Shown here: positions 15,145-58,238 of the stretch, in pieces
Position numbering within the stretch: the first letter of the stretch is position 1
How the letters are laid out: the number at the start of each line of letters is the position of its first letter
IMG/VR virus record: IMGVR_UViG_3300031414_000001
Coordinates: 240,437 to 304,436 of that record
From: a virus
Taxonomy: Duplodnaviria > Heunggongvirae > Uroviricota > Caudoviricetes
Reading direction: 5' to 3' (one strand)
DNA: 64,000 nt
Translations under genes and position numbers: made by a program
Notes under the pieces: model-generated
What the model was told of the DNA's origin: nothing
Database searches by the model: none
Seen by the model: the letters and a program-made list of their open reading frames with translations, nothing else

Positions 15145-15657
15145 TTACTCCAGGTATGGATTTTTGTGTGTTAAACTTTCTATGTCTTCAGCGGTAATCA
15201 TAACATGTGGCTCACCCTCTGTAAAGAGGAAGTCGTGATAACTTTCACGTACTGTAAAATTATCCATGACATAGCCTTTCGATAGAAACATAAGAATGTG
15301 TTTCTCGTCAGGTTTTGTATATGTGTTTCTTAGTTTCTCCACTTCAGATTGTGGAGTCTTATCTTTATTGTTTCGCATTACACATTCGTTGAATTCAGTA
15401 TTCATCGTCATGGGCGTTGCCATAATCCATTTATCAGTACTGTTAATAGTGACAGCAAAGCAATTACACATTGGATTATTGAAAAATTCGTACATTGTCG
15501 AACTACATAGGAAAAGACATTGAACAATGTCCTTAATGTTAAACATAATCCCATGTACTTCAAAGGCTTCTTTTGAGATCACATCATCAATCGGCCCATT
15601 CTCTTTGTGAATAATATTCATGCGTTCACTCCCTTGAACTCTTTTAATGCACCGCAT
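15145..15657 (-). CDS. hypothetical protein (170 aa)
   Basis: Intact ORF. Confidence 0.45.
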   Translation of the reverse strand: MRCIKRVQGSERMNIIHKENGPIDDVISKEAFEVHGIMFNIKDIVQCLFLCSSTMYEFFNNPMCNCFAVTINSTDKWIMATPMTMNTEFNECVMRNNKDKTPQSEVEKLRNTYTKPDEKHILMFLSKGYVMDNFTVRESYHDFLFTEGEPHVMITAEDIESLTHKNPYLE

Positions 15658-15701: not shown

Positions 15702-16145
15702 TTATGATGCGGTTAATTTCCGCAAGAATTCTTCGTGAACTCTACGGCACATCGTAATCGTTTCCTGCATTGTATCATAGTCGAACTGTACTGGCAAGCC
15801 AAAAACAGCACCATTATTTGTAAACGCAGATGGGAGTTCTTCTAAACTAAAGGAACCTTCAAAGAGATTAGTACTCAATTCGTTTCCCGCCTGAACGAAG
15901 AAAAATTCAGGACTGTAACGTATTACAATATTCTTCTTGTCAATACCTATGTTACATAAATCTTGTAAGTTCTGAGTTCGTACCTTTAACTTGTATACGT
16001 TCTTGCGAACTTCCTGAACATCCAAAGAGTATCCTTCACCTATGTAAAAATTGTTCTTCGGAGCAAGTTCTAATCCATTGATGTTACTCAAAACATCCTG
16101 GATAATGAAATTGATTGGGTCAATATTCTCAATTATGTTCAGCAT
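15702..16145 (-). CDS. hypothetical protein (147 aa)
   Basis: Intact ORF; abuts the paralog array. Confidence 0.45.
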   Translation of the reverse strand: MLNIIENIDPINFIIQDVLSNINGLELAPKNNFYIGEGYSLDVQEVRKNVYKLKVRTQNLQDLCNIGIDKKNIVIRYSPEFFFVQAGNELSTNLFEGSFSLEELPSAFTNNGAVFGLPVQFDYDTMQETITMCRRVHEEFLRKLTAS

Positions 16146-16828
16146 TTTTGTTCTTCCAATTTATGTACTAATTTTCTGTATGATTCAATATGACTGTCAT
16201 TAAAAATCCTGTCCATATTGATTGTCAAAGACACAAAATTACCAATCCAAAGATTCTCTAAAGTTCTTTGAACTTCAATAAAATATTCTTCTGGTGGTAA
16301 ATCTACTTGCGTCAACTTTTGGAAGTACCATGCTTCATCATGCTTCAAATCATTATCTAACCTATATTCAGTACAGTCAAGTACTTTCATTCCTCGATTC
16401 ATGGGTGAATAAGAAAACTTATCCTGATTAACATGATTGCCATCATTAATATCACTGAAGTGAATTAACGCAGCATCATGCCATGAAGAATGATTGTTAG
16501 ATGTAAATTTCATATAGAAATGAACACAATTATCCTTTACATGTTGAATACGAAACATACCACAATCAGAATCAATCTCTGTAAAGTCTGGATTAGAAAT
16601 ACAGTAGTTTTCTACAATCTCCAGTAGTGGTAACATCTGTTCAACAAGGATTAGTTCTTTAAGAAACACATCATCGCAATCATCATAACTGAATTGATGT
16701 ATTTTTTTCATTAACTCCAGATCAATCTCTGTTGTTATTTCAGCATCAAGTTCTGCTTGTAGTTCTGCCATAAAGTCATCATCATCAGTAATAATGTCCT
16801 TGATAGCCTTCGAAAGTGAATTGTCCAT
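16139..16828 (-). CDS. early paralog family member 1 (EEYF-motif family)
   Basis: Contains DLPPEEYFIEVQRTLENL, matching the family motif. Confidence 0.5.
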   Translation of the reverse strand: MDNSLSKAIKDIITDDDDFMAELQAELDAEITTEIDLELMKKIHQFSYDDCDDVFLKELILVEQMLPLLEIVENYCISNPDFTEIDSDCGMFRIQHVKDNCVHFYMKFTSNNHSSWHDAALIHFSDINDGNHVNQDKFSYSPMNRGMKVLDCTEYRLDNDLKHDEAWYFQKLTQVDLPPEEYFIEVQRTLENLWIGNFVSLTINMDRIFNDSHIESYRKLVHKLEEQKC

Positions 16829-17219
16829 TTAGTATATCTTCTGCTACGTCCATATGCATCGTGCTATGGTCTAAAATTTTAATATTTGTTGTATCGAAAA
16901 GGCAGAAAGATGGCATTATGTCCGGTTCATATTCGTTGATATATTTAATCGAATCAAAAATGACATTTTCCCGCAAAAGCATATTATGTAGTTTACGCCA
17001 ACCTTCGTCTGAACCTTCATCAAAAGATTCATACGGAGTAGTACTGATAAGCTCGCACTGGTGAATATGAATATGATCAATGTAATGACCTTTGCCGCGA
17101 CCCTCATATAATTTACGCAGAGCACATTCAATAGCACTCTGGTATCCACCTACATGTAAACCACCATAAGGAATATAGAATTCCTCAATCTTTACAGTAC
17201 CAGCATGAAATACAATCAT
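16785..17219 (-). CDS. hypothetical protein inside the paralog array (144 aa)
   Basis: Intact ORF; no family motif seen. Confidence 0.4.
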   Translation of the reverse strand: MIVFHAGTVKIEEFYIPYGGLHVGGYQSAIECALRKLYEGRGKGHYIDHIHIHQCELISTTPYESFDEGSDEGWRKLHNMLLRENVIFDSIKYINEYEPDIMPSFCLFDTTNIKILDHSTMHMDVAEDILNGQFTFEGYQGHYY

Positions 17220-17812
17220 ATTACCCTGAACCCTTCAAGTGTTTTTAATTTGAATTTTTCCAGATCACTAATGTTAATCATAATATCCTCACGAATTAAA
17301 TTCGGAAGAACTAGATTGTAGTACCAGTTAACTTCTTGCTGGAATAATTCATACGGAATAATGTTCTGTACTGTCAGTTGTTGGAAGAAATATTCTTCAC
17401 CATATTCCTCAAATACGTCTTCAGCATCAGAGCCAGAAGAACAAGAAATATATCGGCGTTCCCAATTCGTTTTATGATCGCCAACAACTAAACACAAATC
17501 ATCGTTGTACCTTCCATTGTACCACTGGAACTCGCTATCTGACAAGGAAAATTCTGCCCAAACCGCGTGATCTCGTTCTACAATACTAATCTCAAATACT
17601 GGATATTCAGAATCAGATTCATCATATACCGAAAAGTACTTAGGACGCATAACAATGTTCTGTCCAGTATCCCTGAAGTTCAAGAACTCGAACTCATAAC
17701 TTTCTTCAGTACCCGCAAGATGCGAGTACTTTTCTTCCATCTGAAGATATAAGTTATATACATGTCGAATCATATAGAACGTTTCTGGAGTACTGAATTC
17801 TTCACGTTTCAT
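17216..17812 (-). CDS. early paralog family member 2
   Basis: EEYGEEYFFQQLTVQNIIPYELF motif. Confidence 0.5.
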   Translation of the reverse strand: MKREEFSTPETFYMIRHVYNLYLQMEEKYSHLAGTEESYEFEFLNFRDTGQNIVMRPKYFSVYDESDSEYPVFEISIVERDHAVWAEFSLSDSEFQWYNGRYNDDLCLVVGDHKTNWERRYISCSSGSDAEDVFEEYGEEYFFQQLTVQNIIPYELFQQEVNWYYNLVLPNLIREDIMINISDLEKFKLKTLEGFRVI

Positions 17813-18392
17813 CTAAGTAACCTTTTACTTGTTCTAAGAACGTACTCCAGTACTGTTCCTGATAATTGAAATTAATACTCATTTTAAATGGAAGTGCACG
17901 AATCGTTTTATGAATAGCATCATACTCTGCCATATCTTCATAATACGGAATATCGTGTAACGTTAATAACTGGAACAACCATTCCTCAGTAATCTGTTCA
18001 GGTAATATAGCAACTACATCACCACCAGTACTCATAAAGTACGCATGACTCTCTGGAATGTTATTCATCGAAATTTGATTGTGAACCTTAGAAATACTAT
18101 TGAAGAACCAGGCAACATCATACACAACACTTAAGGAACACAATGTCTGTACTGAAGCAGCTAAACAACTAATAGTACTTCTACTGAACGTAAAATTGAT
18201 TTGCTTTTTATGATGGGCTGGATGATCTGATTCACTAACCGAAAACGAATACTGTATAGAATACTCAGTACTGTTAACACCGCACGGCACGTTTGTATCA
18301 CGTGTCTTAAGTACGAATGGCTTATCTCGTAACTTCGGCAAGTCCTTCACGATTTCATGTAATGCTGTCAGTACTTCTTTCATATTAACCAA
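17802..18392 (-). CDS. early paralog family member 3
   Basis: ILPEQITEEWLFQLLTLHDIPYYEDM motif. Confidence 0.5.
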   Translation of the reverse strand: MVNMKEVLTALHEIVKDLPKLRDKPFVLKTRDTNVPCGVNSTEYSIQYSFSVSESDHPAHHKKQINFTFSRSTISCLAASVQTLCSLSVVYDVAWFFNSISKVHNQISMNNIPESHAYFMSTGGDVVAILPEQITEEWLFQLLTLHDIPYYEDMAEYDAIHKTIRALPFKMSINFNYQEQYWSTFLEQVKGYLDET

Positions 18393-18898
18393 TTGCTAAG
18401 ACTGTAAGGATAATGTGTATCATCTTTATGTAATTCAATTAATTCAGAGTACTTCAACAAAGCATTTAATGTATTATGATGAATGTCCTTCCGAATATAT
18501 CCAATATATCCTGAAGTATGAAGTAGACACAAATAATAATAATCATATAATTCAGAATCATTATACAGTGTCTGTAACTGGAAATCTAATGCTTCATCAA
18601 ACTCCGGTATTCTACGTAACTGTCGGTCAATCCTTCGATGATTGTAGTTAGTACCTGAACCATCAAAAATATAAAATGAAGCATGGTGTCTGACAATTGA
18701 TGCGTCACCATCACTCATAAGGAGAGTATAATTCATTCCAGCTTTACCTTTTCGATAAATCTTATCCGAATAAAATCTATAAGACTTTATACCAATAGAA
18801 TTTGTACTCAACCGTTCAGTACTAGCTTCTTGATGTGCTCTAATAGAAGCTACTTTATCTGCCACAAATTTTGCTTTGTTGTATATTTCTAAACTCAT
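18380..18898 (-). CDS. early paralog family member 4 (divergent)
   Basis: Similar size and position; the motif is degenerate. Confidence 0.4.
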   Translation of the reverse strand: MSLEIYNKAKFVADKVASIRAHQEASTERLSTNSIGIKSYRFYSDKIYRKGKAGMNYTLLMSDGDASIVRHHASFYIFDGSGTNYNHRRIDRQLRRIPEFDEALDFQLQTLYNDSELYDYYYLCLLHTSGYIGYIRKDIHHNTLNALLKYSELIELHKDDTHYPYSLSNWLI

Positions 18899-19503
18899 AA
18901 CTTCGCCGTTCTCCGTATTGCGAATTCGACTAATTTAATATCATCCCGTACTTTCTTCATAGCACCGGAATCATTAAGGACTTCCCTGAATTTCTGAACA
19001 CCAGTACTATCATTAGCTATTAATTGAAGAACACATTGATGCTCTTTCTCAATATCTACAAAGTACTGATATAAATCTTCTGAACTTAAATCTAATAAAG
19101 TTAAATGCTGGAAGTACTGTTCTTCTGATATAGGAAATGGAAGTACTTTAAGTGTTTCTCTATCCTGTACCCAAATCTTATCTGAATCCAGTACTCTACC
19201 GAAATTGATTCCAGTACTTGAGGCTTCACCAAAGAATTGACAGCAATCCCATCTGTCATGTTCGAAATCCATACTGTATTCAAATACAAATACATCAGGT
19301 TCATATATCTTTAATTGTACCCATTGTGCTGTACAAATTAATCTGTACTCCAATGAACCATGTCTACCACCCATGTTATTAACACTATAAGAACCTTTCT
19401 TACATGAATCCAGTACTAAATTGTCCACAAGCTGAATTAAAATATTCTGTTCTTCATAGAACTGCTTTAATAACTCACAATTTCTCACACGCTTCCCTCG
19501 CAC
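18895..19503 (-). CDS. early paralog family member 5
   Basis: LPFPISEEQYFQHLTLLDLSSEDLYQYF motif. Confidence 0.5.
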   Translation of the reverse strand: MRGKRVRNCELLKQFYEEQNILIQLVDNLVLDSCKKGSYSVNNMGGRHGSLEYRLICTAQWVQLKIYEPDVFVFEYSMDFEHDRWDCCQFFGEASSTGINFGRVLDSDKIWVQDRETLKVLPFPISEEQYFQHLTLLDLSSEDLYQYFVDIEKEHQCVLQLIANDSTGVQKFREVLNDSGAMKKVRDDIKLVEFAIRRTAKL

Positions 19504-19594
19504 CCTCGCCGCCGCCCATTATACCTTAATATCTATAATGAGAAGCGGAAATTTTTTCTGGTTATTTTTTGTACACGTTTTTTAAGGTGAAGAC

Positions 19595-20287
19595 TTATTT
19601 ATCTCCGTGAAAATCATCAAAATGTTCACGTTCTACATCCTTCGCCCATTCTTCATCACGTGCCTCAATACGGTCTTTCTCAACCTGAATCAATCCTTCA
19701 AGAACTTCCCGTACTGATTGTACCATACTTTCTTTGTTCGTTTCATCTATTTGATCTTCTGCTATCCATCCTGCGTTGAATGAATATGCCTTGAACTTCG
19801 TAACACCGTCCATTACATATGAACCTGTATTCATGAACAAATCAATATCAGATTCTAACGGTACTGGAAACCTCGTTAACTCCTGAAACACTTGTTCCTC
19901 TTGTAAAGGATATTGTAATGAACATTGTTTAGCTTCACGTAAACTAATCGCATGACTTATTAATAATTCGGTACTATCCTTTCGGTACGTACTGAATCCT
20001 ATATTATCACAATTCGAATTCAATCGAACATGAGATGAACGCAAATTAGATACTACTGTTCCTGTATCGTAAAAACATGTACAATGAATTATCTCATAAT
20101 CCGTGTCTTCACCAATAGCATAAGCATTGAAGGTCATTCGGTCGTCACGTGCTCGTACTAAACGACAGCGAACATTATCGTTCTTAAAGGATATGTCATT
20201 TAAAACTTCTGTCTCAAATGGCTCCATCAACATCTTCAATACATCTTTAAACGCATCTTGTACGTAAAGGTTCCTAAACGTTGTCAT
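19595..20287 (-). CDS. early paralog family member 6
   Basis: LQYPLQEEQVFQELTRFPVPLESD motif. Confidence 0.5.
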   Translation of the reverse strand: MTTFRNLYVQDAFKDVLKMLMEPFETEVLNDISFKNDNVRCRLVRARDDRMTFNAYAIGEDTDYEIIHCTCFYDTGTVVSNLRSSHVRLNSNCDNIGFSTYRKDSTELLISHAISLREAKQCSLQYPLQEEQVFQELTRFPVPLESDIDLFMNTGSYVMDGVTKFKAYSFNAGWIAEDQIDETNKESMVQSVREVLEGLIQVEKDRIEARDEEWAKDVEREHFDDFHGDK

Positions 20288-20912
20288 GTATCGTTCGCTC
20301 CTGAATCTCGGTTTCTAATACTTCAATTAACTCTAAAATTTCTTCTGTACTCAAAATATCCAGTACTCGATAATCTAACTTCATCGTACAAAAGAAACCT
20401 TTTTCATCCCTCTCGTACTCAGTCATCCTGTGCGGATATATCTGTACAGCAATTAACTGAGTCAGGACTTCATTCATTGTATAACGTGTGAGGTTCTGAA
20501 AGATTATCGGGTCAATTATATCTGGTTCAAGACTTGTATCAGCCGACAAAGCAGGATATGTCTGAGCCATCTTATCTAACCTTCCTAAACTTGCACGACG
20601 TATTCCACGACTCATAACCCAAGTATAAGGCCATCGTGTAGGAAATATCGCTCGTACATCATCCCATATCTCAGGCTGGAATGGCTCGTTATTTGAATCG
20701 TAATACAAAAACTCAGTACATCCCTCAAATTCTTTATCAAGCATCTCTATGTATGCTATACTTGAGTTTACTGATGTACGATAATTTTTACCCGTACTTA
20801 ACTGCTTAACCTTAAATGTAAATCCTAATCCTTCATCTAACCTGTACATACAATACAGTTCATCCAGTACTTTCATTAATCGAAGTACTTCATCCAGCTT
20901 TGGAGGCTTCAT
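20274..20912 (-). CDS. early paralog family member 7
   Basis: IIDPIIFQNLTRYTMNEVL motif. Confidence 0.45.
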   Translation of the reverse strand: MKPPKLDEVLRLMKVLDELYCMYRLDEGLGFTFKVKQLSTGKNYRTSVNSSIAYIEMLDKEFEGCTEFLYYDSNNEPFQPEIWDDVRAIFPTRWPYTWVMSRGIRRASLGRLDKMAQTYPALSADTSLEPDIIDPIIFQNLTRYTMNEVLTQLIAVQIYPHRMTEYERDEKGFFCTMKLDYRVLDILSTEEILELIEVLETEIQERTIHDNV

Positions 20913-21525
20913 GCTCTAATCCTATTACAGTACTATAATACAAATCTTTCAACGCAGCTTCACGTTCTTCACCTAAACCAACAAATGGTGCTAAGTTCAC
21001 TGCGTACTTCTGAATACCAACATCCTCATTGATAAGAACCTGATTCAGTAGTATAGCAGTTAAATCTACCATTCCATACTTAGACATAAGCATGAACTCC
21101 ATGACTTCTAATTCTTCTGGATCATTCTCATGAAGCATCTCAAATACCTTAGTAGGATGATTACCCTTCAAGAAGTAATAAGGTTCTGCTGCGTTTGGAA
21201 TAGTACAAAGACTACGACCATCGTAAGAACTAATATATTGCCTCTGCTGTTCAGCAGTAGTCATAGAAAACATTTGCTCACGAGTAGCTTTGTGTAACCT
21301 GGAACTCTGGAAACTCAAATGAGCATTATCATAACCAACATGAATGTTACATGTTACTGAAGCACCAAACGCTGGATAGTACTTCGTAGTCTGATAATCA
21401 AAAGAAGAACCATAATTCGCTACCGCCAATGTTTCAATTCGAGGAAACATCTTCAAGTACTGTTCACGTAAATGAGTAATTAGCTCGTAGTGAAAATCAA
21501 TCGTCTGTAACATCATATGCTCCAT
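20890..21525 (-). CDS. early paralog family member 8 (divergent)
   Basis: Same size class, tandem position. Confidence 0.4.
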   Translation of the reverse strand: MEHMMLQTIDFHYELITHLREQYLKMFPRIETLAVANYGSSFDYQTTKYYPAFGASVTCNIHVGYDNAHLSFQSSRLHKATREQMFSMTTAEQQRQYISSYDGRSLCTIPNAAEPYYFLKGNHPTKVFEMLHENDPEELEVMEFMLMSKYGMVDLTAILLNQVLINEDVGIQKYAVNLAPFVGLGEEREAALKDLYYSTVIGLEHEASKAG

Positions 21526-22099
21526 CTAAGTAAGGTACTAACAAATCCAGTACTGTTTGTACTTCTAAATCAAAATCATTAAGTACCATTCCAATCGTTA
21601 TTGCTGAATGGTCATTATGACGAAACATTTGAATCATCTTCTCGCACTCTGTATCCCACATACCGTAATCTTCTTCAGGTAATGTTTCCTGTACTGTCAT
21701 ACGCTGAAAGAAATATTCTTCAGGGAAAGGATATGAAATGAAAGTATGTTTCTGACCGTCCCTGCCATTACTTGGATCGAACAGTGCGTAGTACCGTGGA
21801 TGGTCTTCTTTCCAAAACGCAATACGCATACCGTTAGAATCAAAAGTACTTAAGTATTGAGAACTCGTATTAAAGGACATGCTGAATACAATGTCCTCCT
21901 GCCAACGCCCACCATTACCAAATAACTTTAAGATGTACTGGTACTCGTTTAAGTCACCATCACTCCACCGTGCTACGGAAGCACCGTATTCATCATTTAA
22001 CTGAACATAGGCTTTATCTTGAAAAGGTATCTTAGGAACAAGGTGCTCCCACGTTCCAAGAAACATTTCCTTTATCTTTTCGTACTTTTCGTAATCCAT
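21497..22099 (-). CDS. early paralog family member 9
   Basis: ISYPFPEEYFFQRMTVQETLPEEDY motif. Confidence 0.5.
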   Translation of the reverse strand: MDYEKYEKIKEMFLGTWEHLVPKIPFQDKAYVQLNDEYGASVARWSDGDLNEYQYILKLFGNGGRWQEDIVFSMSFNTSSQYLSTFDSNGMRIAFWKEDHPRYYALFDPSNGRDGQKHTFISYPFPEEYFFQRMTVQETLPEEDYGMWDTECEKMIQMFRHNDHSAITIGMVLNDFDLEVQTVLDLLVPYLDGAYDVTDD

Positions 22100-22707
22100 T
22101 ATTGAATGTATCCTTGTTCTTTAGCTTGTTCAATAATCTGTTCAACAACACCTTCGTAGGAGATTAAATCAATAGGTGCTTCAACGTGCTTGCCGTAAAT
22201 CATGAAAGCACGGTACTTCTCATTATGTAAGTACTGAATGCTTTCTTGTACAGTTTCAAACATCTTAATACCATTAGGTGAGTAATACCCTGCTTCAGCA
22301 CCCTGGAGTACTATCATTCCCTGGCCGACGAATGTTTGACCTTCCAGTACTTCATAATCATATTCAGTACGAAGCATACCAATGCGAACGTGTGGTTCAA
22401 AGAAGTCGCCGATTGTGATTGCGGAAGAATTGCCCTGTACAGTGTACGTAACAGTAAGACCTAAAGTACCGCCAATTTCTAAAAGAGTGTGTTCGACCTG
22501 ATCGCTGAGGACGCTGGTTCGACCATTCTGAAGTTTATCTTCGATTTGGAGAAGTAACTGTATCAGTACTTCAGAGATTTTGAGGAACTTCGTGTAGTAT
22601 TCTTCGCCGAGGTTAATGAGGGATAAACCGTTATGAGCATTTTGTTTAATACGATTCAGGCGAGAATTCCATTCACGATTAGCTAAGCCGCAAGCAGTGC
22701 TTTCCAT
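22099..22707 (-). CDS. first gene of the tandem array (202 aa); family membership uncertain
   Basis: Intact ORF with AAGGAAACAAC-ATG RBS; similar size. Confidence 0.45.
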   Translation of the reverse strand: MESTACGLANREWNSRLNRIKQNAHNGLSLINLGEEYYTKFLKISEVLIQLLLQIEDKLQNGRTSVLSDQVEHTLLEIGGTLGLTVTYTVQGNSSAITIGDFFEPHVRIGMLRTEYDYEVLEGQTFVGQGMIVLQGAEAGYYSPNGIKMFETVQESIQYLHNEKYRAFMIYGKHVEAPIDLISYEGVVEQIIEQAKEQGYIQ

Positions 22708-22937
22708 GTTGTTTCCTTAATGTGGGATTAATTGTATAGGGTAATACTTATACCCCGTTTATAAGGGTGCTAAGCATTACTGGCCTTTAGTAAGCAAAAA
22801 AATTTTGCATAGTCTTTTAATGTTATATACAGAAAAGTCAAGGGATTACCTGTTCATTTTAAAAGTCAAGCACTTTTTAGTTCACTTAACTTTTTTTCAG
22901 ATAATTCCTAAAGTACTGTAATCCTGCGTAGAACGCT

Positions 22938-24324: not shown

Positions 24325-24354
24325 TTTGTTTCTCTCCGTTGTTTCAGTACTGAT

Positions 24355-24383
24355 AGTATATGACAGGGGCTAACAGTTGTCAA
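24355..24383 (-). promoter_or_regulatory. early sigma70 promoter embedded in terminator hairpin (TTGACA-N17-TATACT, then ATCAGTACTGAAAC)
   Basis: Reverse complement reads ggggTTGACAactgttagcccctgtcaTATACTatcagtactgaaac. The GGGGUUGACA/UGUUAGCCCC arms form the stem. Confidence 0.6.
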
Positions 24384-24395
24384 CCCCTAATTTGA

Positions 24396-24704: not shown

Positions 24705-24737
24705 TTGTTTACTTCCTGTTGTTGTTTCAGTACTGAT

Positions 24738-24766
24738 AGAATAGCAAAGGGGCTGAACTATGTCAA
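24738..24766 (-). promoter_or_regulatory. early sigma70 promoter in terminator hairpin (TTGACA-N17-TATTCT)
   Basis: Reverse complement reads GGGGTTGACAtagttcaGCCCCtttgcTATTCTatcagtactgaaac. The 8-bp stem GGGGUUGA/UCAGCCCC contains the -35. Confidence 0.6.
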
Positions 24767-24781
24767 CCCCTAATTTGTACT

Positions 24782-25624
24782 TTATGCGGCATCTACTAAT
24801 GAAGTTGCCAACTGCCACAATTTAGAGTTAAAGTCTAAATTCTTGTCGATGTTAGTCACGCCGCGAGTAGTACGGCGACGGCCTGTATCACTGCGGCCTG
24901 ATTGTCCACCAGCCATTACGTTCTGTTGTACGATGTTAAACGTGCTGTAAAGGCTGTTGCTGTTGCGATCAGTACTGTTCACGTTGCGAGTATTCAACAA
25001 CTGTTCAGGACTGTACAGGAAGTTGATCCCTTCGCCTGGTTTTGGTAAACCTTCTTTAGCGAAGTAACCAGCAACGGCAAATGATTTGCGTTGTTTGTCG
25101 TCTAACTGGATGCGTGACATTTCGCCTTTGTAACGGTCGATAAGGTCGAAGTCTTTAACAACCTCGAATACACCTTCGATCACGTCATCCATGATGTTCT
25201 GGCCTTTGTGATAGATCTTAGTGTTGCTTTGGGTGTTACCCATTACCAGACCATTAGCACAAACAAAACGGAATTGCCCGCTAATCAACTGATAAGCACT
25301 TGTGCCATCGTTGGCGTTAAGAAGGATGATTTCATTTGCTTCACCTTCTTTCATACCAGGTTGACGGAAACGCAACATATGCTTTGTGAATTCGCGTTTT
25401 GATTCATCGCGTACACGTGCCTGAGTTGCGAACATCGGGAAATAGTTTTCCTGAGCAAGACGATCAATCACGTCGATAGTTGGCACTGGTGCGAAACGTG
25501 CTGAACGTGATTCGTGTGCATCGTACTGGAATACGGACGGCACTACTTCCAGGAGTTCAGTTCTGGTCAATGGACGGTTTTCTTTGATAGCTTTACCGTT
25601 GATACCCTGATACATTTTAATCAT
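24782..25624 (-). CDS. DUF932-like phage/plasmid-associated protein
   Basis: 280 aa; segment QLISGQFRFVCANGLVMG resembles the conserved core of the DUF932 family. Confidence 0.4.
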   Translation of the reverse strand: MIKMYQGINGKAIKENRPLTRTELLEVVPSVFQYDAHESRSARFAPVPTIDVIDRLAQENYFPMFATQARVRDESKREFTKHMLRFRQPGMKEGEANEIILLNANDGTSAYQLISGQFRFVCANGLVMGNTQSNTKIYHKGQNIMDDVIEGVFEVVKDFDLIDRYKGEMSRIQLDDKQRKSFAVAGYFAKEGLPKPGEGINFLYSPEQLLNTRNVNSTDRNSNSLYSTFNIVQQNVMAGGQSGRSDTGRRRTTRGVTNIDKNLDFNSKLWQLATSLVDAA

Positions 25625-26144: not shown

Positions 26145-26519
26145 CCCTTTCTATTAAAATATTTGCATTTCTTTTGCTACTGCCTGGCTGTAATAATAAA
26201 GAGCATACCAGGGCTTGACAAACGTTGTGGTGCAGTTATTAATATCTGCGTGGTTAAGTGTTAGTACTCCGTGTTTAGAATACAATCTAACTTTGCCGTT
26301 TCTGAATGATTTAAGTTCACGCATGATTAGAATACCAGGAAAAAGGAAAGTACTGTAACAATTGCGAGGATCACAATTTGTTCCATATGTTTAGCTTCAA
26401 TGTGTGCTAAACTTTCTTCTGTATACTCTACAACATATTTTTCTTTCATGTTTGCTTCCTCTGTTTCAGTACTGATAGGATAGCAAAAGGGCTTAACCTA
26501 AGTCAAGCCCTATTTTGAA

Positions 26520-27565: not shown

Positions 27566-27637
27566 GGTAGTGCCCTCGTTTGTTGTCAGTACTGATAGGA
27601 TAGCAAAGGGGCTGAACTATGTCAACCCCTTATTTGA

Positions 27638-28941: not shown

Positions 28942-29012
28942 TTCGTTGTACCTTGTTTGTTTTCAGTACTGATAGAATAACAAAGGGCTTAACCAAAGTC
29001 AAGCCCTAATTT

Positions 29013-41471: not shown

Positions 41472-43502
41472 ATGTTACCCTTTCCAATATTAAACTACTA
41501 TGGGAATAACATTGTACCTCCAGTAAAGACAATAGAAAGATTTTCAATATCCTCCAATGGTTCAGGAGTACTGTTACATTATGCTAATGGTGATTTATAT
41601 GCTTTAGGAACTAACACTGCTGGTAAGTTTGGTACAGGTGATACTACGAACATAACTGGTGCTTGGAGACTCATAGCTAGTAATGTACGTAAGTATGTAT
41701 GTTCTCATAACTTCACTATAATCATACACAATGATGGTTCAGTTCAGTACTCAGGCAATGTGAGTAATATTTTCACGTCAGCATTAGGATATTCATTTAG
41801 TACTACGAATGTGTTTACTGACATGAGTTCGGCGTTTAGTTCCTTTGATGTTCTAGGCATTAAGTCCTTAGAGTCTATGGAAGATTCAGGATATAGATTT
41901 TGGCTAATTGATAAGAATGATGTGTTATGGTGTATTGGTTCTAATCAGTACTACGCATTAGGTAGTTCTTCTAGTCTTACTACAACGAATTGGGTACAGG
42001 CAGTTAATGGTACTAATGTCGAAAGAGTTATGCCTGGATTACAATCAGTATGGATTAAGAAGAAAGATAATACGTACTGGAGAGCGGGAACTAATGCTTA
42101 TGGTTTATTAATGAGTAGTTCAGCTTCACAGACATATACGACATTTACTGTACAGAATTCATATGCCGGTACAGCGGCGAATAACACTATACGGAATCTA
42201 ACAGTAACTCCATACAACATGTATATGAATTTAGAAGACGGTTCAGTACGTATCTATGGTGTAAGAAACTCTGGTCAGACAGGTACAGGAAGCACAACTG
42301 GTACGGCATTGATTCCAGATAATCCATCGGGAACAAGTGGAGTTCTGAAGTTACTGGATAGTACTGGTTCGTTTTACAGTTCTTATTTGGTTGGGCCGAA
42401 TGGATTATTGGTAGCAGGTCAAGGTACTAATAACATGTTTGGTTTAGGTACGGGGGCATCTCCTACAACCTTTACGTTATCTAACACAGGTGTAATGACT
42501 AATTTAGATTATGCTAATTTAGATTACTTGAACTTCGTTACATCTAATGCTGGGTATGCTGTAATTGGTGGGGAAGTATATACTGCTGGTAATAGTGCTT
42601 ATACATTAGGTGCTACGTCATATATTACGTGGACATTGATGAATACACCACAGAGTCAGTTATGGGGAACATCAGGAATGGTTAGTACTATAACTAATGC
42701 TTCGACTACTTCTCCGACAATGACTAGATATTCTCACAGCAGATGTAGTTATGGAGATGATAAGTTCATTATCTATGGTGGATATAATGGTTCGACGATT
42801 TTTAATGATATTAACATTTACGATGGTACTACAGGAACGTGGAGTACTGTACCAGTGACGGGAACTACGAAGGCATTATTTGGTGCAGGTATTACTACTA
42901 TTGGTGATACGATGTATGTCTTTTGTGGTAACAGTACTACCTCGACTACGACGAACACGATTTATTCAGTTAATTTACTTACTGGAGATTGGACTACGAT
43001 TACGCCGAGTGGAAGTACTATAAGTGCTAGATCGCATGTACGGGCGTGTACTATAGGAACTATGATATACATATGGGGTGGTGAGAGTGTTAACACATGG
43101 TTCTCATTTAATCCGGTTACGAATGTAGTAGCTTCTATGCCTACATCGCCAGTAACATCTAGTATTGATGCGGATATGGTTACTGATGGTAAGGATATAT
43201 TTGTTAACATTGGTACTACGGCGTTTTACAAGTACAGTACTAGTAAAGCTGCTTGGATAGTACTAGCTAATAAGAATAATGCGGCATTGAAGCTCGCATA
43301 TAGTAATGGATATATCTATGGTTCTATGGCGGGGAATACATTCTTGTTCGCATATAAGGTCAGTACTAACATATGGACGCAATTACCTAATCCTTCATTG
43401 ATTAGTACTAGTCGTCATTGTTTAGCATCAGCGGCGGGTAAGGTTGTGTATACGGGTGGTATAGCTAGTACTAACAGCAATAACTGTTTTACAATAACAT
43501 AA
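41472..43502 (+). CDS. MLPFPxL-tagged RCC1-like + Kelch-like beta-propeller protein (676 aa)
   Basis: N-terminal tag MLPFPILNYYGN. RCC1-type GxNxxGxLGxG blades (GTNTAGKFGTGDTTN, GSNQYYALGSSSS). C-terminal Kelch-like blades (RYSHSRCSYGDDKFIIYGG, RSHVRACTIGTMIYIWGG). Confidence 0.75.
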   Translation: MLPFPILNYYGNNIVPPVKTIERFSISSNGSGVLLHYANGDLYALGTNTAGKFGTGDTTNITGAWRLIASNVRKYVCSHNFTIIIHNDGSVQYSGNVSNIFTSALGYSFSTTNVFTDMSSAFSSFDVLGIKSLESMEDSGYRFWLIDKNDVLWCIGSNQYYALGSSSSLTTTNWVQAVNGTNVERVMPGLQSVWIKKKDNTYWRAGTNAYGLLMSSSASQTYTTFTVQNSYAGTAANNTIRNLTVTPYNMYMNLEDGSVRIYGVRNSGQTGTGSTTGTALIPDNPSGTSGVLKLLDSTGSFYSSYLVGPNGLLVAGQGTNNMFGLGTGASPTTFTLSNTGVMTNLDYANLDYLNFVTSNAGYAVIGGEVYTAGNSAYTLGATSYITWTLMNTPQSQLWGTSGMVSTITNASTTSPTMTRYSHSRCSYGDDKFIIYGGYNGSTIFNDINIYDGTTGTWSTVPVTGTTKALFGAGITTIGDTMYVFCGNSTTSTTTNTIYSVNLLTGDWTTITPSGSTISARSHVRACTIGTMIYIWGGESVNTWFSFNPVTNVVASMPTSPVTSSIDADMVTDGKDIFVNIGTTAFYKYSTSKAAWIVLANKNNAALKLAYSNGYIYGSMAGNTFLFAYKVSTNIWTQLPNPSLISTSRHCLASAAGKVVYTGGIASTNSNNCFTIT

Positions 43503-43511
43503 GGAGAGAAT

Positions 43512-44612
43512 ATGTTACCATTTCCAATAATGAATCAGTACGGTAATGAAGTAGTTTATCCTGATGTGATAAAGAAGCTCAGTACTGGTCAGAACAACAC
43601 AGGGTTATTAAAAACTAATGGTGATTTTTACATACAAGGATTAAACAACGTAGGGCAAAGTGGTACAGGTAATACTAATGATGTAGTTAACTTTACTAAA
43701 GTGGATTCTGGTGTTGCTGATATTAGTGTAGGGTACAATACTTCCTTTTATAGAAAAGGTACTAACCAGATAATGGGTACTGGAGTTTTCAGTTATATAG
43801 ATGGAACAGTGCAAAAGAATACATGGACACAAATCAATTCATTGTTTACATCACTTAGTGTATCTTTTGAATTATTTTTAGATATAAGAACAAGTAGTTC
43901 AGGTTTGTTCGTATTGTACAATGGAAATTATTTGTACTGTCGTGGTTCAAATACAAATGGTGATTTAGGTGTTACTTCGAACACTAGTACTTGGTCATTA
44001 AGTGCTACTGATGTAAAGGAAGTTCATTGTGGGTATGAGTGTAGTTACATATTAAAGACTAATGGTGATTTATATGCTTCAGGTACTAACAGTAGGGGGC
44101 AATTAGGCACAGGTAATACTACTCGTTCAAATACTTGGATACTAATACAGCAGAATGTATTACAAGTTTATGCTGGTTTTTATAATCTAATCATTGCTAA
44201 GAGTGATGGGCTATATGGTGTAGGTGCTAGAGAGAATGGATTGTTAGGTGATGGTTATACCAGTTCAACAGCATCAAATCAATTAGGTTTTGTAAAATTG
44301 AATATTCCCAATGGAAGTTATAATTTAGGACGCGGTTTCATTTACAGTTCAGGAAACGCGGTACTGGATACTGGTGTTGCTTATGTATCTGGGGTTAATG
44401 CTGCGGTTGGTGGTGCTGGGGCGAATAATGGTTTATTCACACAAGCACAAGGAACATTACCAATGAACTTAAAAGGATTAAATTTAATGGCTAATGGTAT
44501 ATTAGTACATGATGGTACGGATATATGGGGTTCTGGTAATGGACGATTACTACCTGGATATGGTTCAGGAACTTATACAACCTTTGTAAAATGTACAATG
44601 CCAACTACATAA
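43512..44612 (+). CDS. MLPFPxL-tagged RCC1-like beta-propeller protein (366 aa)
   Basis: Tag MLPFPIMNQYGN. Repeats GLNNVGQSGTGNTN, GSNTNGDLGVTSN, GTNSRGQLGTGNTT, GARENGLLGDGYT. Coupled via TAAGGAGAGAAT-ATG. Confidence 0.75.
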   Translation: MLPFPIMNQYGNEVVYPDVIKKLSTGQNNTGLLKTNGDFYIQGLNNVGQSGTGNTNDVVNFTKVDSGVADISVGYNTSFYRKGTNQIMGTGVFSYIDGTVQKNTWTQINSLFTSLSVSFELFLDIRTSSSGLFVLYNGNYLYCRGSNTNGDLGVTSNTSTWSLSATDVKEVHCGYECSYILKTNGDLYASGTNSRGQLGTGNTTRSNTWILIQQNVLQVYAGFYNLIIAKSDGLYGVGARENGLLGDGYTSSTASNQLGFVKLNIPNGSYNLGRGFIYSSGNAVLDTGVAYVSGVNAAVGGAGANNGLFTQAQGTLPMNLKGLNLMANGILVHDGTDIWGSGNGRLLPGYGSGTYTTFVKCTMPTT

Positions 44613-44622
44613 GGAGAGACAG

Positions 44623-45129
44623 ATGTTACCTTTTACACAATTATTGGTTTATGGAAATACTGTAATTAGAAATGAATATAATATGTTTGTTTCTGAATTA
44701 ACTTCAAATAGTACAAATAAGTCCGTAGTTTATAATCAATCATACAGTGCTATAAATGGAACTACATATAATAGAGTTTATATGTATAGTACTGCTGCAC
44801 TATCAGGCACATTATGGGGAACACCATATGGTAATAAAATGACATGGGATAGTTCATTTTGTAGAGTTATACAACATGCGTTTCCTACCCAGGCATTATA
44901 TAGTGATTTTATTGCTAATCCTGGTAATCGAGTTGTATGTTTAGTTCGTTCAGCAACGGCGAGTGGGAGTGGGTATGTATCATTATCCAGAAATGGATAT
45001 ACAAGTTCATCATATGGATCATTTACTGGTTGTACTGTAACACAATTTATATATTTTGATCCTGTTACACAACGTGTTATGACATATAATCCTAGTACTG
45101 TTAGTACTCCAACATTTTATTACACATAA
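44623..45129 (+). CDS. MLPFxQL-tagged small protein (168 aa)
   Basis: Tag MLPFTQLLVYGN; TAAGGAGAGACAG-ATG coupling; no propeller repeats. Confidence 0.6.
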   Translation: MLPFTQLLVYGNTVIRNEYNMFVSELTSNSTNKSVVYNQSYSAINGTTYNRVYMYSTAALSGTLWGTPYGNKMTWDSSFCRVIQHAFPTQALYSDFIANPGNRVVCLVRSATASGSGYVSLSRNGYTSSSYGSFTGCTVTQFIYFDPVTQRVMTYNPSTVSTPTFYYT

Positions 45130-45140
45130 GGAGAGAATGG

Positions 45141-46307
45141 ATGTTACCATTTCCACAATTATTAGATTACGGGAATACTGTTGCTCCACCAGCACCAATT
45201 AAAAAGATACAAACATATTCGAACTCAGTATATGTTTTAATGTCCTCTGGACAATTATATGTTCGTGGATTTAATAGTTCAGGTCAATTAGGTATAGGAA
45301 GTACAGCAACAGTAACCACATGGACATTGAGTACTATACTAGTAGATGATGTATGGGTTGGTGGTAGTGCGGCTTTAATACGTAAAATGGATGGTACTTA
45401 TCAATTCACTGGCAATAATACAAATGTAGGAAATGCTAATGGAACCAGTACTACAACATGGGCTACATGGACTGTTAAGAATACATTAACATCAGGAATA
45501 GTAGATATTGCTTTGAGTTCTCAAAGCATTAGTGTACTGTTAGAAGATGGAACTATTAAGTCGGCGGGTGTTGGTACTAATGGACAGTTAGGTAATAATA
45601 GCACAACAAACAATATAGCTGGTTCTTTTGTAAACAGTACTATACCGAGTGGTATTACACCTGTTTCATTACTGGCTGGTAATACGATGCATGGATTCAT
45701 TGGGAACAATGGTAAGTTGTATCATACTGGTATGGTTAATGCTACTAATACTGTTAGTCCCGGTACTACAACATATCTGGTATATACATTGAATCCAGCT
45801 ATTGGTACTAATACTGCTTTATCATACATGAATAACGCTAATGGATTAGCTATGGGTTTGATTAGAACTCCAGCTAATGTTGTTCGAATGTATTTTGGTG
45901 GTTCAAGAATATTTGGTCAAATGGCAGATGGGGTTAATGGGAACTTATCTAACATTAAAGCTTTTGGTGATTTTACTGGAACTCCATATCCATCAGGAAC
46001 TATTCTTGGTGTAAGTACTGGTTATTCGTATTATGCTCAGATGGTTATTACGAGTACTGGAATATTTGCGGCGGGTCGTAATACTGGAGATCAGTCTGGT
46101 GCTTTAAGTACTGGAATCGCATCAGAAGCATTGACCTATACAGCATGTGTATTACCATCTAGTTTTGATACTACTAATGCGAAAGTACATATGTGTTTAA
46201 GCAGAACGTACTTAACTGATGGTAATTATCTGTATAGTTCAGGTACATATGTTACTTATGGTGGTCCAAGTAGTACTACGTTTACATTAGATGATCCAAG
46301 ATTTTAA
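45141..46307 (+). CDS. MLPFPxL-tagged RCC1-like beta-propeller protein (388 aa)
   Basis: Tag MLPFPQLLDYGN; repeats GFNSSGQLGIGSTAT, GVGTNGQLGNNSTTNN. Confidence 0.7.
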   Translation: MLPFPQLLDYGNTVAPPAPIKKIQTYSNSVYVLMSSGQLYVRGFNSSGQLGIGSTATVTTWTLSTILVDDVWVGGSAALIRKMDGTYQFTGNNTNVGNANGTSTTTWATWTVKNTLTSGIVDIALSSQSISVLLEDGTIKSAGVGTNGQLGNNSTTNNIAGSFVNSTIPSGITPVSLLAGNTMHGFIGNNGKLYHTGMVNATNTVSPGTTTYLVYTLNPAIGTNTALSYMNNANGLAMGLIRTPANVVRMYFGGSRIFGQMADGVNGNLSNIKAFGDFTGTPYPSGTILGVSTGYSYYAQMVITSTGIFAAGRNTGDQSGALSTGIASEALTYTACVLPSSFDTTNAKVHMCLSRTYLTDGNYLYSSGTYVTYGGPSSTTFTLDDPRF

Positions 46308-46317
46308 GGAGAGAGAA

Positions 46318-46971
46318 ATGTTACCATTTCCACAATTAGTTCAGTACGGTAATGTTGTTCAGACCGCATTGATGGATATTGATTTTAATAATAGTACTGT
46401 TGGTAGTACTGTAATTACAGATATTGGTGGACATGTATTCACTAAGATTGGTACAGGTTCAGCGGTAGTAGTTAATGATGCTACAAAGGGGAATGTGATG
46501 CAATTCAGTGGTTCATCATATTTTACAACACCTATGGTTCAAAATATATCTTTAAGTAATTTACATTTCAAGATGCGATTAGTATTCAAGAGTACAGTGT
46601 CATCTGAGAACATGGTATTCAGTACTGGAGATTATTATTCTAGTGGTTCAATAGTAGGTGGTATATTGCTTACCTTATTCAATAACACTGGTTCTCAATT
46701 ATTCTGTACTACAACATCTGGTGTATTCACTCGTTGTCAATTCACATATGTAGTTAATACATGGAGAGATTTAACGATAGAATGGATACCTACAACAAAG
46801 ACAATGATTATACATGATAATGATTCTAACACTAACGTGTTTAGTGGTACTGTTCCTGGTGGATTTGGTGATGGTACACAATTTGCGATTGGTGCTAGTT
46901 ATGTTCGTGGGGCTGGTAATGCTAATTTCCAGGGACAAATACAAAAAATACGTATTGATGCTGTACTATAA
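46318..46971 (+). CDS. MLPFPxL-tagged ConA/LamG-like lectin-fold protein (217 aa)
   Basis: Real start at MLPFPQLVQYGN (the track ORF starts 27 nt earlier). C-terminal ...FAIGASYVRGAGNANFQGQIQKIRIDAVL resembles the LamG/ConA-like F.G.I.E.RI signature. Confidence 0.65.
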   Translation: MLPFPQLVQYGNVVQTALMDIDFNNSTVGSTVITDIGGHVFTKIGTGSAVVVNDATKGNVMQFSGSSYFTTPMVQNISLSNLHFKMRLVFKSTVSSENMVFSTGDYYSSGSIVGGILLTLFNNTGSQLFCTTTSGVFTRCQFTYVVNTWRDLTIEWIPTTKTMIIHDNDSNTNVFSGTVPGGFGDGTQFAIGASYVRGAGNANFQGQIQKIRIDAVL

Positions 46972-46983
46972 TAGTACTCAAAT

Positions 46984-47012
46984 AAAGCTCAACTTAGGTT
47001 GGGCTTTTATTA
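46984..47012 (+). terminator. rho-independent terminator (AGCUCAAC-UUAG-GUUGGGCU + U-tract)
   Basis: Hairpin followed by TTTTATTATTTT. The same CAAC-UUAG-GUUG hairpin type recurs at 48238 and 61806. Confidence 0.6.
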
Positions 47013-47060
47013 TTTTCGTGGGTAAATACTTAATTAATATTTTAAAAAAAGGAGTTTCTA

Positions 47061-48236: not shown

Positions 48237-48237
48237 G

Positions 48238-48268
48238 AAAAGGCTCGACTTAGGTCGGGCTTTTCTTG
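48238..48268 (+). terminator. rho-independent terminator (GGCUCGAC-UUAG-GUCGGGCU + U-tract)
   Basis: Hairpin then TTTTCTTGTTT; followed by the GGGTAAATAC motif at 48276-48285. Confidence 0.6.
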
Positions 48269-48312
48269 TTTAAGTGGGTAAATACAGTAATAAGATTCTA
48301 AAAGGGGGATTT

Positions 48313-50385: not shown

Positions 50386-50394
50386 GGAGAAAAC

Positions 50395-51054: not shown

Positions 51055-51069
51055 TTAAAGGAGAAAAAC

Positions 51070-51843: not shown

Positions 51844-51853
51844 GGAGATAAAG

Positions 51854-52480: not shown

Positions 52481-52490
52481 GGAGATTAAT

Positions 52491-58236: not shown

Positions 58237-58238
58237 AG

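Follow-up and report, generated by a model that had tools for sequence, protein, structure and literature searches.

A conserved tandem array of diverged paralogs with an embedded ADP-ribosyltransferase-fold gene in Rak2-like jumbo phages

Gene content and layout of the array

The minus-strand gene block at 16139–22707 is, with high probability, a conserved operon-like unit in which nine old tandem paralogs, an embedded gene of ADP-ribosyltransferase (ART) fold and an unrelated opening gene stand together at the border of the unique region. The nine paralogs belong to a lineage-specific family that is undescribed until now, being neither named nor delimited in the literature that we searched. 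The window (the whole 64-kb stretch of DNA analysed) comes from a Rak2-like jumbo myophage, and its DNA is ~85% identical to that of Xanthomonas phage XbC2 and Erwinia phage Kaldavass. An earlier note on this sequence had described 11 packed minus-strand ORFs within these limits, as we also find, but the overlaps that it put at 1–40 nt are in fact 1–44 nt, and one 91-nt gap (19504–19594), which it did not mention, interrupts the array.

The block opens with a gene that is not a family member (22099–22707, 202 aa; family HMM E = 9.5). Its hhalign probability against the family is only 0.3%, marking it as unrelated; it has no Pfam or PHROG match, and its homologs are confined to XbC2 apart from a weak match to g027 of Yersinia phage fHe-Yen9-04. 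Then follow the member at 21497–22099 (200 aa, motif PFPEEYFFQRMTV; HMM E = 5e-12, leave-one-out P = 54%), which aligns to the 17216 orthogroup with an hhalign P of 92% over 113 columns, a degenerate member at 20890–21525 (211 aa, FQ replaced by FM in ELEVMEFMLMSKYG; own HMM E = 0.14), and members at 20274–20912 (212 aa, motif DIIDPIIFQNLTRY; HMM E = 6e-11, leave-one-out hhalign P = 92.7%) and 19595–20287 (230 aa, motif PLQEEQVFQELTRF; HMM E = 1e-16). The last of these matches phrog_27532 at 1e-49 and the 18895 orthogroup with an hhalign P of 96.3%.

Beyond the gap lie the member chosen for structure modelling (18895–19503, 202 aa, motif PISEEQYFQHLTLL) and a shorter one (18380–18898, 172 aa, motif EFDEALDFQLQTLY; HMM E = 1e-13, leave-one-out hhalign P = 93.2%) that has no ortholog in XbC2 and is apparently missing from Kaldavass too. 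The member at 17802–18392 (196 aa, motif QITEEWLFQLLTLH; leave-one-out P = 96.7%) has the top family-HMM score among the window ORFs (E = 8e-22), and is followed by another at 17216–17812 (198 aa, motif YGEEYFFQQLTVQ; HMM E = 9e-14, leave-one-out P = 93.9%). The ART-fold gene (16785–17219, 144 aa), a non-member with a family-HMM E of 6.4, comes next, and the array closes with a member that carries an acidic N-terminal extension (16139–16828, 229 aa, true motif DEAWYFQKLTQV; HMM E = 4e-13, leave-one-out P = 93.1% spanning 66 columns). Downstream of the array, on the same strand, is a DNA adenine methyltransferase gene.

The paralogs form one family

Where the earlier note had assigned at least seven of the genes to one paralogous family, profile-profile comparison, a converged iterative HMM and leave-one-out tests raise the number to nine of the 11, and leave outside it the unrelated opening gene and the ART-fold gene. 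Orthogroup comparison with hhalign joins eight orthogroups at P = 22–96%, whereas flanking genes all stay at or below 20%; when each orthogroup is left out in turn, all nine members are recovered at P = 54–97%, against ≤2% for non-members. The iterated family HMM converges at 128 proteins from 11 loci. Every match to it in the window falls inside the array, no ORF in the rest of the 64 kb matches the family, and eight window genes score between 6e-11 and 8e-22, the next-best window ORF having an E of 0.1. The degenerate member at 20890–21525 was admitted through its orthologs in GAP32 (2e-12) and Yen9-04 (3e-12); its orthogroup matches those of 20274 (94.5%) and 17802 (81.5%) by hhalign, with a leave-one-out P of 72%.

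Within-window pairwise BLASTP gives a best E of only 0.004, from which one could suppose that nothing but a chance resemblance in a short motif connects otherwise unrelated genes. We reject this reading, whose probability is close to nil: the profile comparisons, which link the members to one another, the iterated HMM, the leave-one-out tests and the motif count (below) all contradict it, and Foldseek pairs the single modelled member with paralog-level BFVD models, from RaK2 and Yen9-03 proteins that are 9–13% identical to it, at a probability of 1.00, albeit with TM-scores of only 0.41–0.49. Nor did the members prove to belong to a known housekeeping family, since none was matched. The family is without a Pfam or PDB match, and PHROGs divides it among at least six entries (phrog_27532, 24375, 23379, 22368, 26432 and 23172). 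Searching 1.84 billion proteins with a family profile gave 33 representatives, all single-domain, and those that were traced came from Rak2-like phages or metagenome contigs.

Motif and predicted fold

The shared motif consists of an acidic pair, two residues, F-Q, one residue and S/L-T, and is present in eight of the nine members. Six of the seven instances quoted in the earlier note are homologous; the seventh, DLPPEEYFIEVQ for 16139–16828, was misplaced, the true motif (DEAWYFQKLTQ) lying 10 residues upstream, and the members at 18380–18898 (FDEALDFQLQTLY) and 20890–21525 had been overlooked. Six-frame translation of the window gives 239 ORFs of 50 aa or more, of which eight contain the pattern [EDA][EDAP]xxFQxx[STL], all of them in the array. 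Outside the motif the proteins are highly diverged, as had been noted: paralogs are 9–20% identical, and F131 is the sole invariant position, with Q132 conserved in at least 90% of 111 sequences (family HMM frequencies: F 98%, Q 95%).

An AlphaFold model of one member (18895–19503), built on a shallow alignment of 23 sequences, predicts that a helical hairpin at the N-terminus is followed by an antiparallel beta-meander of eight strands, the short (S/T)EExxFQx(S/L)T helix and further helices, together a domain of ~170 residues in proteins of ~200 aa. No solved structure is recognisably related to the modelled fold. Residues 127–134, which hold the motif, are predicted as a helix that comes after the beta-meander, and the conserved positions are hydrophobic except for the E, Q and S/T that sit on this single helix. 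Inside a single orthogroup, conservation is highest in the N-terminal helices, the motif and helix 4, and variation is greatest in the sheet loops and C-terminal helices. The family proteins are soluble and mostly acidic (median pI 4.9). From secondary structure and conservation, the family looks like a scaffold that presents a variable surface rather than like an enzyme.

The embedded ADP-ribosyltransferase-fold gene

The product of 16785–17219 has the ART fold, with its split beta-sheet NAD-binding core, and is a bare catalytic domain that lacks a target-recognition domain. The 47 homologs all keep F14, D67, W74, Y93, N95, E98 and S104, and nearly all keep H5; H5, Y93 and E98 are candidate triad residues, picked out only by their conservation in this set. 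The protein has no Pfam family at E ≤ 0.01 (the best, DUF5454 at 0.044 and DUF3990 at 0.081, come from one ortholog each) and no PDB match with sequence or profile, and the sole published support for its identity is a GenBank note on gp123 of Klebsiella phage Muenster (HHpred 4GV2_A, 99.8%). In its minimal-domain size and its conserved H, Y and E it resembles small stand-alone ADP-ribosyltransferases, although it differs from them in having no sequence-level Pfam or PDB match. The RES-domain toxins MbcT, ParT and NatT, the anti-CRISPR AcrIF11 and T4 Alt, ModA and ModB are comparable to this gene only, and not to the surrounding family. The product may be a transferase, an NADase or inactive.

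All the Rak2-like phages that were fetched have the ART-fold gene inside their array, where family members invariably flank it on either side. In Vibrio phages helene 12B3 and S4-7, an ART-like homolog has no family member within the ~7 kb fetched per side, which suggests that the putative enzyme is independent of the family; in S4-7 it is two genes away from a nicotinamide phosphoribosyltransferase.

Non-coding elements and the probable terminal repeat

Upstream of the array is a non-coding leader (22708–22937, minus strand) that, in an alignment of six phages from two genera, is better conserved than coding sequence. It holds an A-tract with GTGCTTGACTTTTAAAATG (22873–22855) and GGCCAGTAATGCT/TAGC (22785–22769); the element occurs once in the window and has no Rfam match. 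The terminal-repeat boundary probably falls at 22773/22772, given that the annotated repeat of CBB ends at the homologous nucleotide, which is also where the Kaldavass record is cut. Counted from this probable boundary, the array begins 65 nt inward, and it lies just outside the repeat. A second intergenic element fills the internal gap (19504–19594, minus strand; AAATTTCCGCTTCTCATTATAG...TATAATGG). It is conserved in six phages and unique in the window (0 matches expected by chance), and possibly acts as an internal promoter or regulatory site.

The description of the array as early genes was not borne out by its surroundings. In the adjoining region of small genes, cassettes of terminator and sigma-70 promoter recur between 23.9 and 40.2 kb only, with none in the array, and no consensus sigma-70 promoter is found in 22708–22937 or within the array. 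The leader does have a -35-like module, AAAAGT(A/G)CTTGAC, in common with the adjacent cassettes. The literature search yielded no transcriptome from any Rak2-like phage.

Distribution, copy number and evolution

The array is found in every Rak2-like genome examined. Its size, which had been called unusual, is that of a small version: relatives have 13–19 copies, as counted within the fetched stretches, and RaK2 has at least 32, so that the range per genome runs from 6 (CBB) through 8 (GAP32) and 9 (the window) to ≥32, with members gained or lost even between close relatives. Between the genera Mimasvirus and Eneladusvirus, each paralog has a 1:1 ortholog and the gene order is kept. The diversifying selection proposed earlier does not fit, as gene-wide dN/dS against XbC2 is 0.15–0.35, i.e. 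purifying. On the other hand, the genes are indeed fast-evolving, at 25–47% identity to their GAP32 orthologs compared with 37–91% (most 56–91%) for flanking genes. Judged by their conserved order, 1:1 orthology and purifying dN/dS, the copies seem to be ancient genes, each kept in its own right, and not a churning array; at the same time, quick divergence, gain and loss and variable copy number suggest a family that is accessory and fast-evolving in its behaviour.

Eukaryotic viruses have terminal multigene families of comparable form, such as MGF360/505 of ASFV and the Bcl-2-like and ankyrin/PRANC families of poxviruses, for which host-immune targets have been demonstrated. The array shares with them tandem paralogs near a genome end, near-noise identity with a fold that is probably common to the copies, and a lineage-variable copy number with each copy under purifying selection. 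It differs in virus realm, host and fold, and its host targets are putative. Among phages, the terminal repeat of T5 carries the pre-early genes, and T4 has hyperplastic regions. These resemble the array as non-essential-looking gene blocks at or near a long direct terminal repeat whose content differs between relatives, except that the array lies just outside the repeat and the T5 genes within it. The lineage-specific expansions of jumbo phages, in which ORFan families are expanded in one lineage, are the same phenomenon, and the published statement on such expansion in RaK2 probably covers genes of this family. In the supplementary files of the CBB paper, CBB_54, 55, 56 and 58 appear in the annotation table only, and the list of 22 paralogs was not located there.

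Possible functions of the array

Our leading reading, offered tentatively, is that the array encodes diversified host-protein binders which are co-expressed with an NAD-using enzyme and serve, outside the virion, in host takeover or counter-defence. A fixed scaffold would be made up of the hydrophobic core together with the conserved helix and the hairpin at the N-terminus; in it, from sequence and secondary structure, the (S/T)-E-E start may be read as a helix N-cap and the invariant Phe as a core residue, while the beta-sheet surface and C-terminal helices would be the diversified parts. Given such a scaffold with a diversified surface, each paralog would bind a different bacterial protein. 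The paralogs and the predicted NAD-using enzyme of the same transcription unit would work together, and host change would drive the gain and loss of copies. The company of the array appears host-directed, with the ART-fold gene inside it and the DNA adenine methyltransferase downstream, and host takeover or counter-defence, as the earlier note had proposed, stays a plausible inference; the family has no structural or sequence similarity to characterised anti-defence proteins or DNA mimics (Ocr, ArdA, anti-CRISPRs and others whose structures are solved).

Stable 1:1 orthology and purifying selection would, however, suit conserved phage-internal roles equally well. The paralogs might be subunits of a hetero-oligomeric assembly, might help replication or packaging close to the genome end, or might be regulators, subfunctionalised long ago. 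We consider this possibility unlikely, but several observations speak for it: the fixed order across genera, dN/dS of 0.15–0.35, presence in all Rak2-like genomes examined and a position adjoining the terminal-repeat boundary. Against it, close relatives lose copies without replacement (CBB 6, GAP32 8, window 9), the five-fold variation in copy number between genera would be unusual for a machine of fixed stoichiometry, and the array proteins diverge much faster than their neighbours. The motif itself could be taken for a protease cleavage site, making the proteins substrates or decoys of a Gln-specific protease. Sites of 3C or TEV type read ExxYxQ then S/G, or LEVLFQ then GP, and the only support for this idea is that EEQYFQ/H, EEWLFQ/L and TEEGYFQ/YST resemble such viral cysteine-protease sites; it is highly improbable, as the prediction makes the motif a helix (block-mean pLDDT 83–90) and not an extended loop, and the T4-type prohead protease cleaves after Glu. 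Packaging in the virion, or injection with the DNA, would agree with the place of the array beside the physical genome end and with its small, mostly acidic proteins, which are like some phage internal proteins. We consider it very unlikely: the structural proteins of RaK2, from mass spectrometry or prediction, all lie in two other gene clusters (54 identified; PMC3622015), and the CBB and BF records, which label other genes there 'structural protein', have only 'hypothetical protein' in the array. Both observations suggest that the array proteins are absent from the virion.

A more specific proposal is that the EExxFQxST helix docks the paralogs on the 144-aa ART-fold enzyme, the variable surface of each presenting a different host substrate to it. 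The enzyme's constant place inside the array, flanked by members in every Rak2-like phage fetched, its want of a target-recognition domain, and the retention of a single short, invariant motif, as a common docking element would show, all speak for such an adaptor set. The cap-like (S/T)EE appears structural, however, as does the invariant Phe, and the ART-like homologs of helene 12B3 and S4-7 have no family member within the ~7 kb fetched per side, and we regard the proposal as rather improbable. Its fullest form, modular targeting in which 9 to >30 paralogs serve as interchangeable substrate adaptors that dock through the invariant helix, is a long shot. If it were true, one minimal NAD-using enzyme could modify many host proteins, and the array, based on a fold not seen before, would be a phage counterpart to the adaptor families of F-box or BTB type.

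Identity of the window and delimitation of the family

Over the region studied, the window is about 85% identical in DNA sequence to Xanthomonas phage XbC2 and Erwinia phage Kaldavass. Synteny is also recognisable with Cronobacter phage GAP32, Pectobacterium phage CBB, Serratia phage BF, the Erwinia SNUABM phages, Yersinia phage fHe-Yen9-04 and Escherichia phage A4, the syntenic relatives belonging to the genera Mimasvirus, Eneladusvirus and Asteriusvirus. As a plasmid search with the window returned 0 matches, sequence comparison thus assigns it to a Rak2-like jumbo myophage of 350–380 kb.

The array of 11 minus-strand ORFs at 16139–22707 lies exactly where an earlier note on this DNA had placed it. 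The tight packing described there holds for neighbours, which overlap by 1–44 nt, but is interrupted once, by a 91-nt gap at 19504–19594. Similarly, six of the seven motif strings quoted in support of a common family are homologous, but the one for 16139–16828 was misplaced; the real motif of this protein is DEAWYFQKLTQ, ten residues upstream. Searched as the pattern [EDA][EDAP]xxFQxx[STL], the EExxFQx(S/L)T motif was present in eight of the window's 239 six-frame ORFs of 50 aa or more, and all eight are inside the array.

Pairwise BLASTP within the window was nearly silent (best E = 0.004) and could not decide whether these genes are related, so we assembled orthogroups from six related loci for profile–profile comparison. 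Among the 153 pairs tested, hhalign joined orthogroups 16139, 17216, 17802, 18895, 19595, 20274, 20890 and 21497 (named by gene start) into one connected set, with links of 22–96% probability and best E-values of 2e-9 to 6e-7, while no flanking gene came up to 20%. An iterated HMM search, covering the 441 ORFs of 100 aa or more found in the window and ten loci, converged at 128 proteins, brought in 18380–18898, and matched nothing in the window outside the array. With one exception, members scored E = 6e-11 or better in the window, and the next-best ORF E = 0.1. The exception is 20890–21525 (E = 0.14), whose GAP32 and fHe-Yen9-04 orthologs scored 2e-12 and 3e-12. When each orthogroup was left out in turn, the remaining alignment still recovered it (hhalign probability 54–97%). 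Genes 16785–17219, 22099–22707 and all flanking genes reached at most 2% against the family. On this basis the flanking genes 15702–16145 and 15145–15657 were rejected as members, as was 22099–22707 as a cryptic member, the latter also by the family HMM. By these profile comparisons, the array consists of nine family members and two non-members. The claim of a single paralogous family with at least seven genes is therefore borne out and extended, the overlooked members being 18380–18898, with motif FDEALDFQLQTLY, and 20890–21525, with a degenerate motif in which FQ has become FM.

Evolution and copy number

Within Mimasvirus and Eneladusvirus every paralog is matched by a reciprocal-best ortholog, and gene order is kept; orthology therefore places the duplications before the origin of both genera. 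No recent duplicates of array genes were found in the window (best within-genome E = 0.01). Protein identity to GAP32 is 25–47% for array members as against 37–91%, mostly 56–91%, for flanking genes. The earlier suggestion of diversifying selection was not supported: gene-wide, pairwise dN/dS against XbC2 is 0.15–0.35 for array members (flanking genes: 0.03–0.19 downstream and 0.05–0.45 upstream), and the family is thus fast-evolving yet, gene-wide, under purifying selection.

Membership also varies among genomes. Gene 18380 is missing from XbC2, 17216 is missing from GAP32 and CBB, and CBB retains just six members. Counting in other genera only what falls within the fetched stretches, we found 13 members in A4, 15 in Hallingskeid, 18 in RaK2 and 19 in Munch. 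Upstream of the RaK2 array, positions 245000–263800 (ORF363–ORF416) hold 14 more matches to the family HMM with the motif tEEgyFQyST, mostly shorter (100–215 aa). By HMM matching, then, RaK2 carries at least 32 family genes over roughly 30 kb, and the domain also exists in truncated versions.

Two other groups of paralogs were seen in the window. A second tandem array (41472–53654, plus strand, and 59446–60084) comprises about 10 genes with a common N-terminus, MLPFPQL..YGN. Six of the seven genes scanned have Kelch and/or RCC1-like beta-propeller repeats, and their Kelch-type relatives in CBB include one virion component. At 57560–58574 (minus strand) there are three adjacent mutual paralogs of 111–112 aa (BLASTP E = 1e-7 and 7e-6) with no Pfam match.

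Database matches and predicted structure

Sequence and profile searches of Pfam, PHROGs and PDB with the family returned nothing informative, Pfam giving no match at all and PHROGs breaking the family up into at least six families. Searched in full with HMMER, a set of 1.84 billion representative proteins yielded no more than 33 clusters, whose proteins are all single-domain and 153–234 aa long. Of the ten representatives that were traced, one stands for a cluster of Serratia phage BF and related Erwinia phages, and the remaining nine trace to metagenome contigs no longer than 371 kb. A word-indexed search of 5.8 billion proteins, queried with a 111-sequence alignment, gave 14 matches, mostly orthologs of its first sequence and none with a Pfam domain.

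Expansion as such is already known: paralogues make up nearly 10% of RaK2 gene products according to the RaK2 paper, and lineage-specific expansions have been described in other jumbo phages. No paper in the searchable literature delimits the EExxFQx(S/L)T family, and in the supplementary files of the CBB paper the four array genes searched (CBB_54, 55, 56 and 58) occur only in the annotation table. The family itself is thus undelimited in the literature searched and split by PHROGs.

The sole member modelled, 18895–19503, gave a pLDDT of 90.1 and pTM of 0.87 from a shallow alignment of 23 sequences. In the model, N-terminal helices (10–18 and 20–36) precede eight antiparallel strands (42–122), a helix carrying the motif (127–134), a further helix (142–151) and strand (157–163), and two final helices (166–176 and 179–199). 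Every named Foldseek match in BFVD at E <= 0.001 is a Rak2-like phage protein, including paralog-level proteins of 9–13% identity; the model is confident and has no known structural relative. Conserved positions across the family are hydrophobic except for E127, Q132 and S/T134–135 of the motif helix. When a single orthogroup is compared, conservation is highest in the N-terminal hairpin, the motif and helix 4, and variation is greatest in the sheet loops and C-terminal helices. The proteins are soluble and mostly acidic (median pI 4.9). As for the start of 18895–19503, the longest ORF begins with GTG and most database orthologs begin seven codons downstream (MRNCELL...), directly after a G-rich Shine–Dalgarno-like stretch; this second GTG is probably the true start.

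The two non-member genes

Gene 16785–17219 (144 aa) is the best-conserved of the block, with 65% identity to GAP32. It has no sequence match in Pfam or PDB, and an AlphaFold2 model from 47 homologs (pLDDT 90.9) predicts an ADP-ribosyltransferase (ART) fold, encoded inside the array. The GenBank note on its ortholog in Klebsiella phage Muenster makes the same assignment, by HHpred. Among the homologs, Y93, N95 and E98 are invariant and H5 nearly so. Homologs of the first gene of the block, 22099–22707, were confined to XbC2 apart from a weak match in fHe-Yen9-04, and searches yielded no family assignment.

Probable genome end, leader and promoters

The 230-nt non-coding leader upstream of the block (22708–22937) is better conserved across genera than the array proteins. 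Within it, GGCCAGTAATGCT|TAGC is conserved at 22769–22785 (minus strand), 65 nt upstream of the array, with a boundary at 22773|22772. In the CBB record a 22,456-bp terminal repeat is annotated to end at AACGCT|TAGCG, leaving 64 nt to the first array gene, and the Kaldavass record is linearised exactly at the homologous nucleotide, window 22773|22772. This conservation and the record boundaries of other authors suggest that GGCCAGTAATGCT|TAGC is probably the boundary of a direct terminal repeat, and hence a physical DNA end. The XbC2 sequence starts near window 41149, and extrapolation from the BF and SNUABM records leads to about 41170. These record ends make it probable that the stretch between 22773 and about 41150 represents one direct terminal repeat, about 18.4 kb long, in collapsed form. 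The window would then seem to join both ends of the unique region via one repeat copy, with the array probably the first gene block of that region. The leader was also considered as a structured RNA and rejected: its stem is conserved but almost invariant, giving no covariation support, and an Rfam search of window positions 15–25 kb found nothing credible. A terminal-repeat boundary is the better explanation of leader conservation.

In the probable repeat, 6–10 copies of an intergenic terminator and sigma-70 promoter cassette precede small genes between 23995 and 40216 (on the minus strand, for example, 24332–24393, 24715–24776, 26454–26515, 27574–27635 and 28951–29012). Read on the minus (coding) strand, each consists of a G+C-rich hairpin overlapping TTGACA-N17-TAT(C/T/A)CT, with CAGTACTGAAAC coming next; AGTACT is present in all copies. 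The array has no such cassette. Its only intergenic gap (19504–19594, 91 nt) is conserved in two genera, unique in the window, and reads AAATTTCCGCTTCTCATTATAG ... TATAATGG; given this conservation and a -10 hexamer that is perfect but lacks a -35 partner, it may act as an internal promoter specific to the phage. A T4-type MotA-box or late-promoter reading of both conserved intergenic elements, at 22855–22873 and 19533–19554, was discarded, as the spacings misfit. Also within the probable repeat, 24782–25624 (minus strand) encodes a DUF932 protein (Pfam E = 1e-32), a domain otherwise typical of plasmids and integrative elements.

Possible functions

The family is old, tandemly duplicated and lineage-restricted, with accessory-like gain and loss. 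The reading we favour, tentatively and at rather less than even confidence, is that the paralogs would combine a common fixed scaffold with surfaces that vary from copy to copy, that each copy would have its own host protein to bind, and that together with the predicted NAD-using enzyme they would act as host-takeover or counter-defence factors. Read from sequence and secondary structure, (S/T)-E-E would form a helix N-cap and the invariant Phe would be a core residue, so that the motif would mark the scaffold and not an active site. The literature search returned no transcriptome or functional study of array genes in Rak2-like phages. A phage-internal role for the paralogs is less probable, though still to be reckoned with. 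It is improbable that the paralogs are adaptors for the ART-fold enzyme. The gene for this enzyme lies within the array, and its homologs stand alone in the 130-kb Vibrio phages helene 12B3, eugene 12A10 and S4-7, with no family member in the flanking stretches fetched, roughly 7 kb on each side; in S4-7 the homolog is two genes from a nicotinamide phosphoribosyltransferase.

The remaining alternatives are far less credible. Proteomics of the RaK2 virion (PMC3622015) placed all structural proteins in two gene clusters other than the array, and none of the array genes carries a structural annotation in the CBB or BF record; on these data the array proteins are absent from virions, and packaged proteins are a very unlikely reading. 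That the conserved motif is a protease site deserves hardly more than mention. Chance resemblance without a real family has a nearly negligible probability, given the connected profiles of the members.

The Rak2-like jumbo phages (Klebsiella RaK2 and K64-1, E. coli 121Q and PBECO4, Cronobacter GAP32, Pectobacterium CBB, and Erwinia, Serratia and Yersinia phages) are therapy and biocontrol candidates, and orphans still account for more than half of their genes. Recognising 9 to more than 30 ‘hypothetical proteins’ per genome as one family reduces this dark matter, and the family profile, the confident model without structural relative and the co-encoded predicted NAD-using enzyme are directly testable material. 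The probable terminal-repeat boundary coincides exactly with a sequence conserved 65 nt upstream of the array, which may help to fix genome ends in Rak2-like phages. The closest functional analogy, one of resemblance and not of membership, is with the terminal multigene families of large eukaryotic DNA viruses; if the paralogs do bind host proteins, the array would be a bacterial-virus counterpart of those of pox- and asfarviruses.
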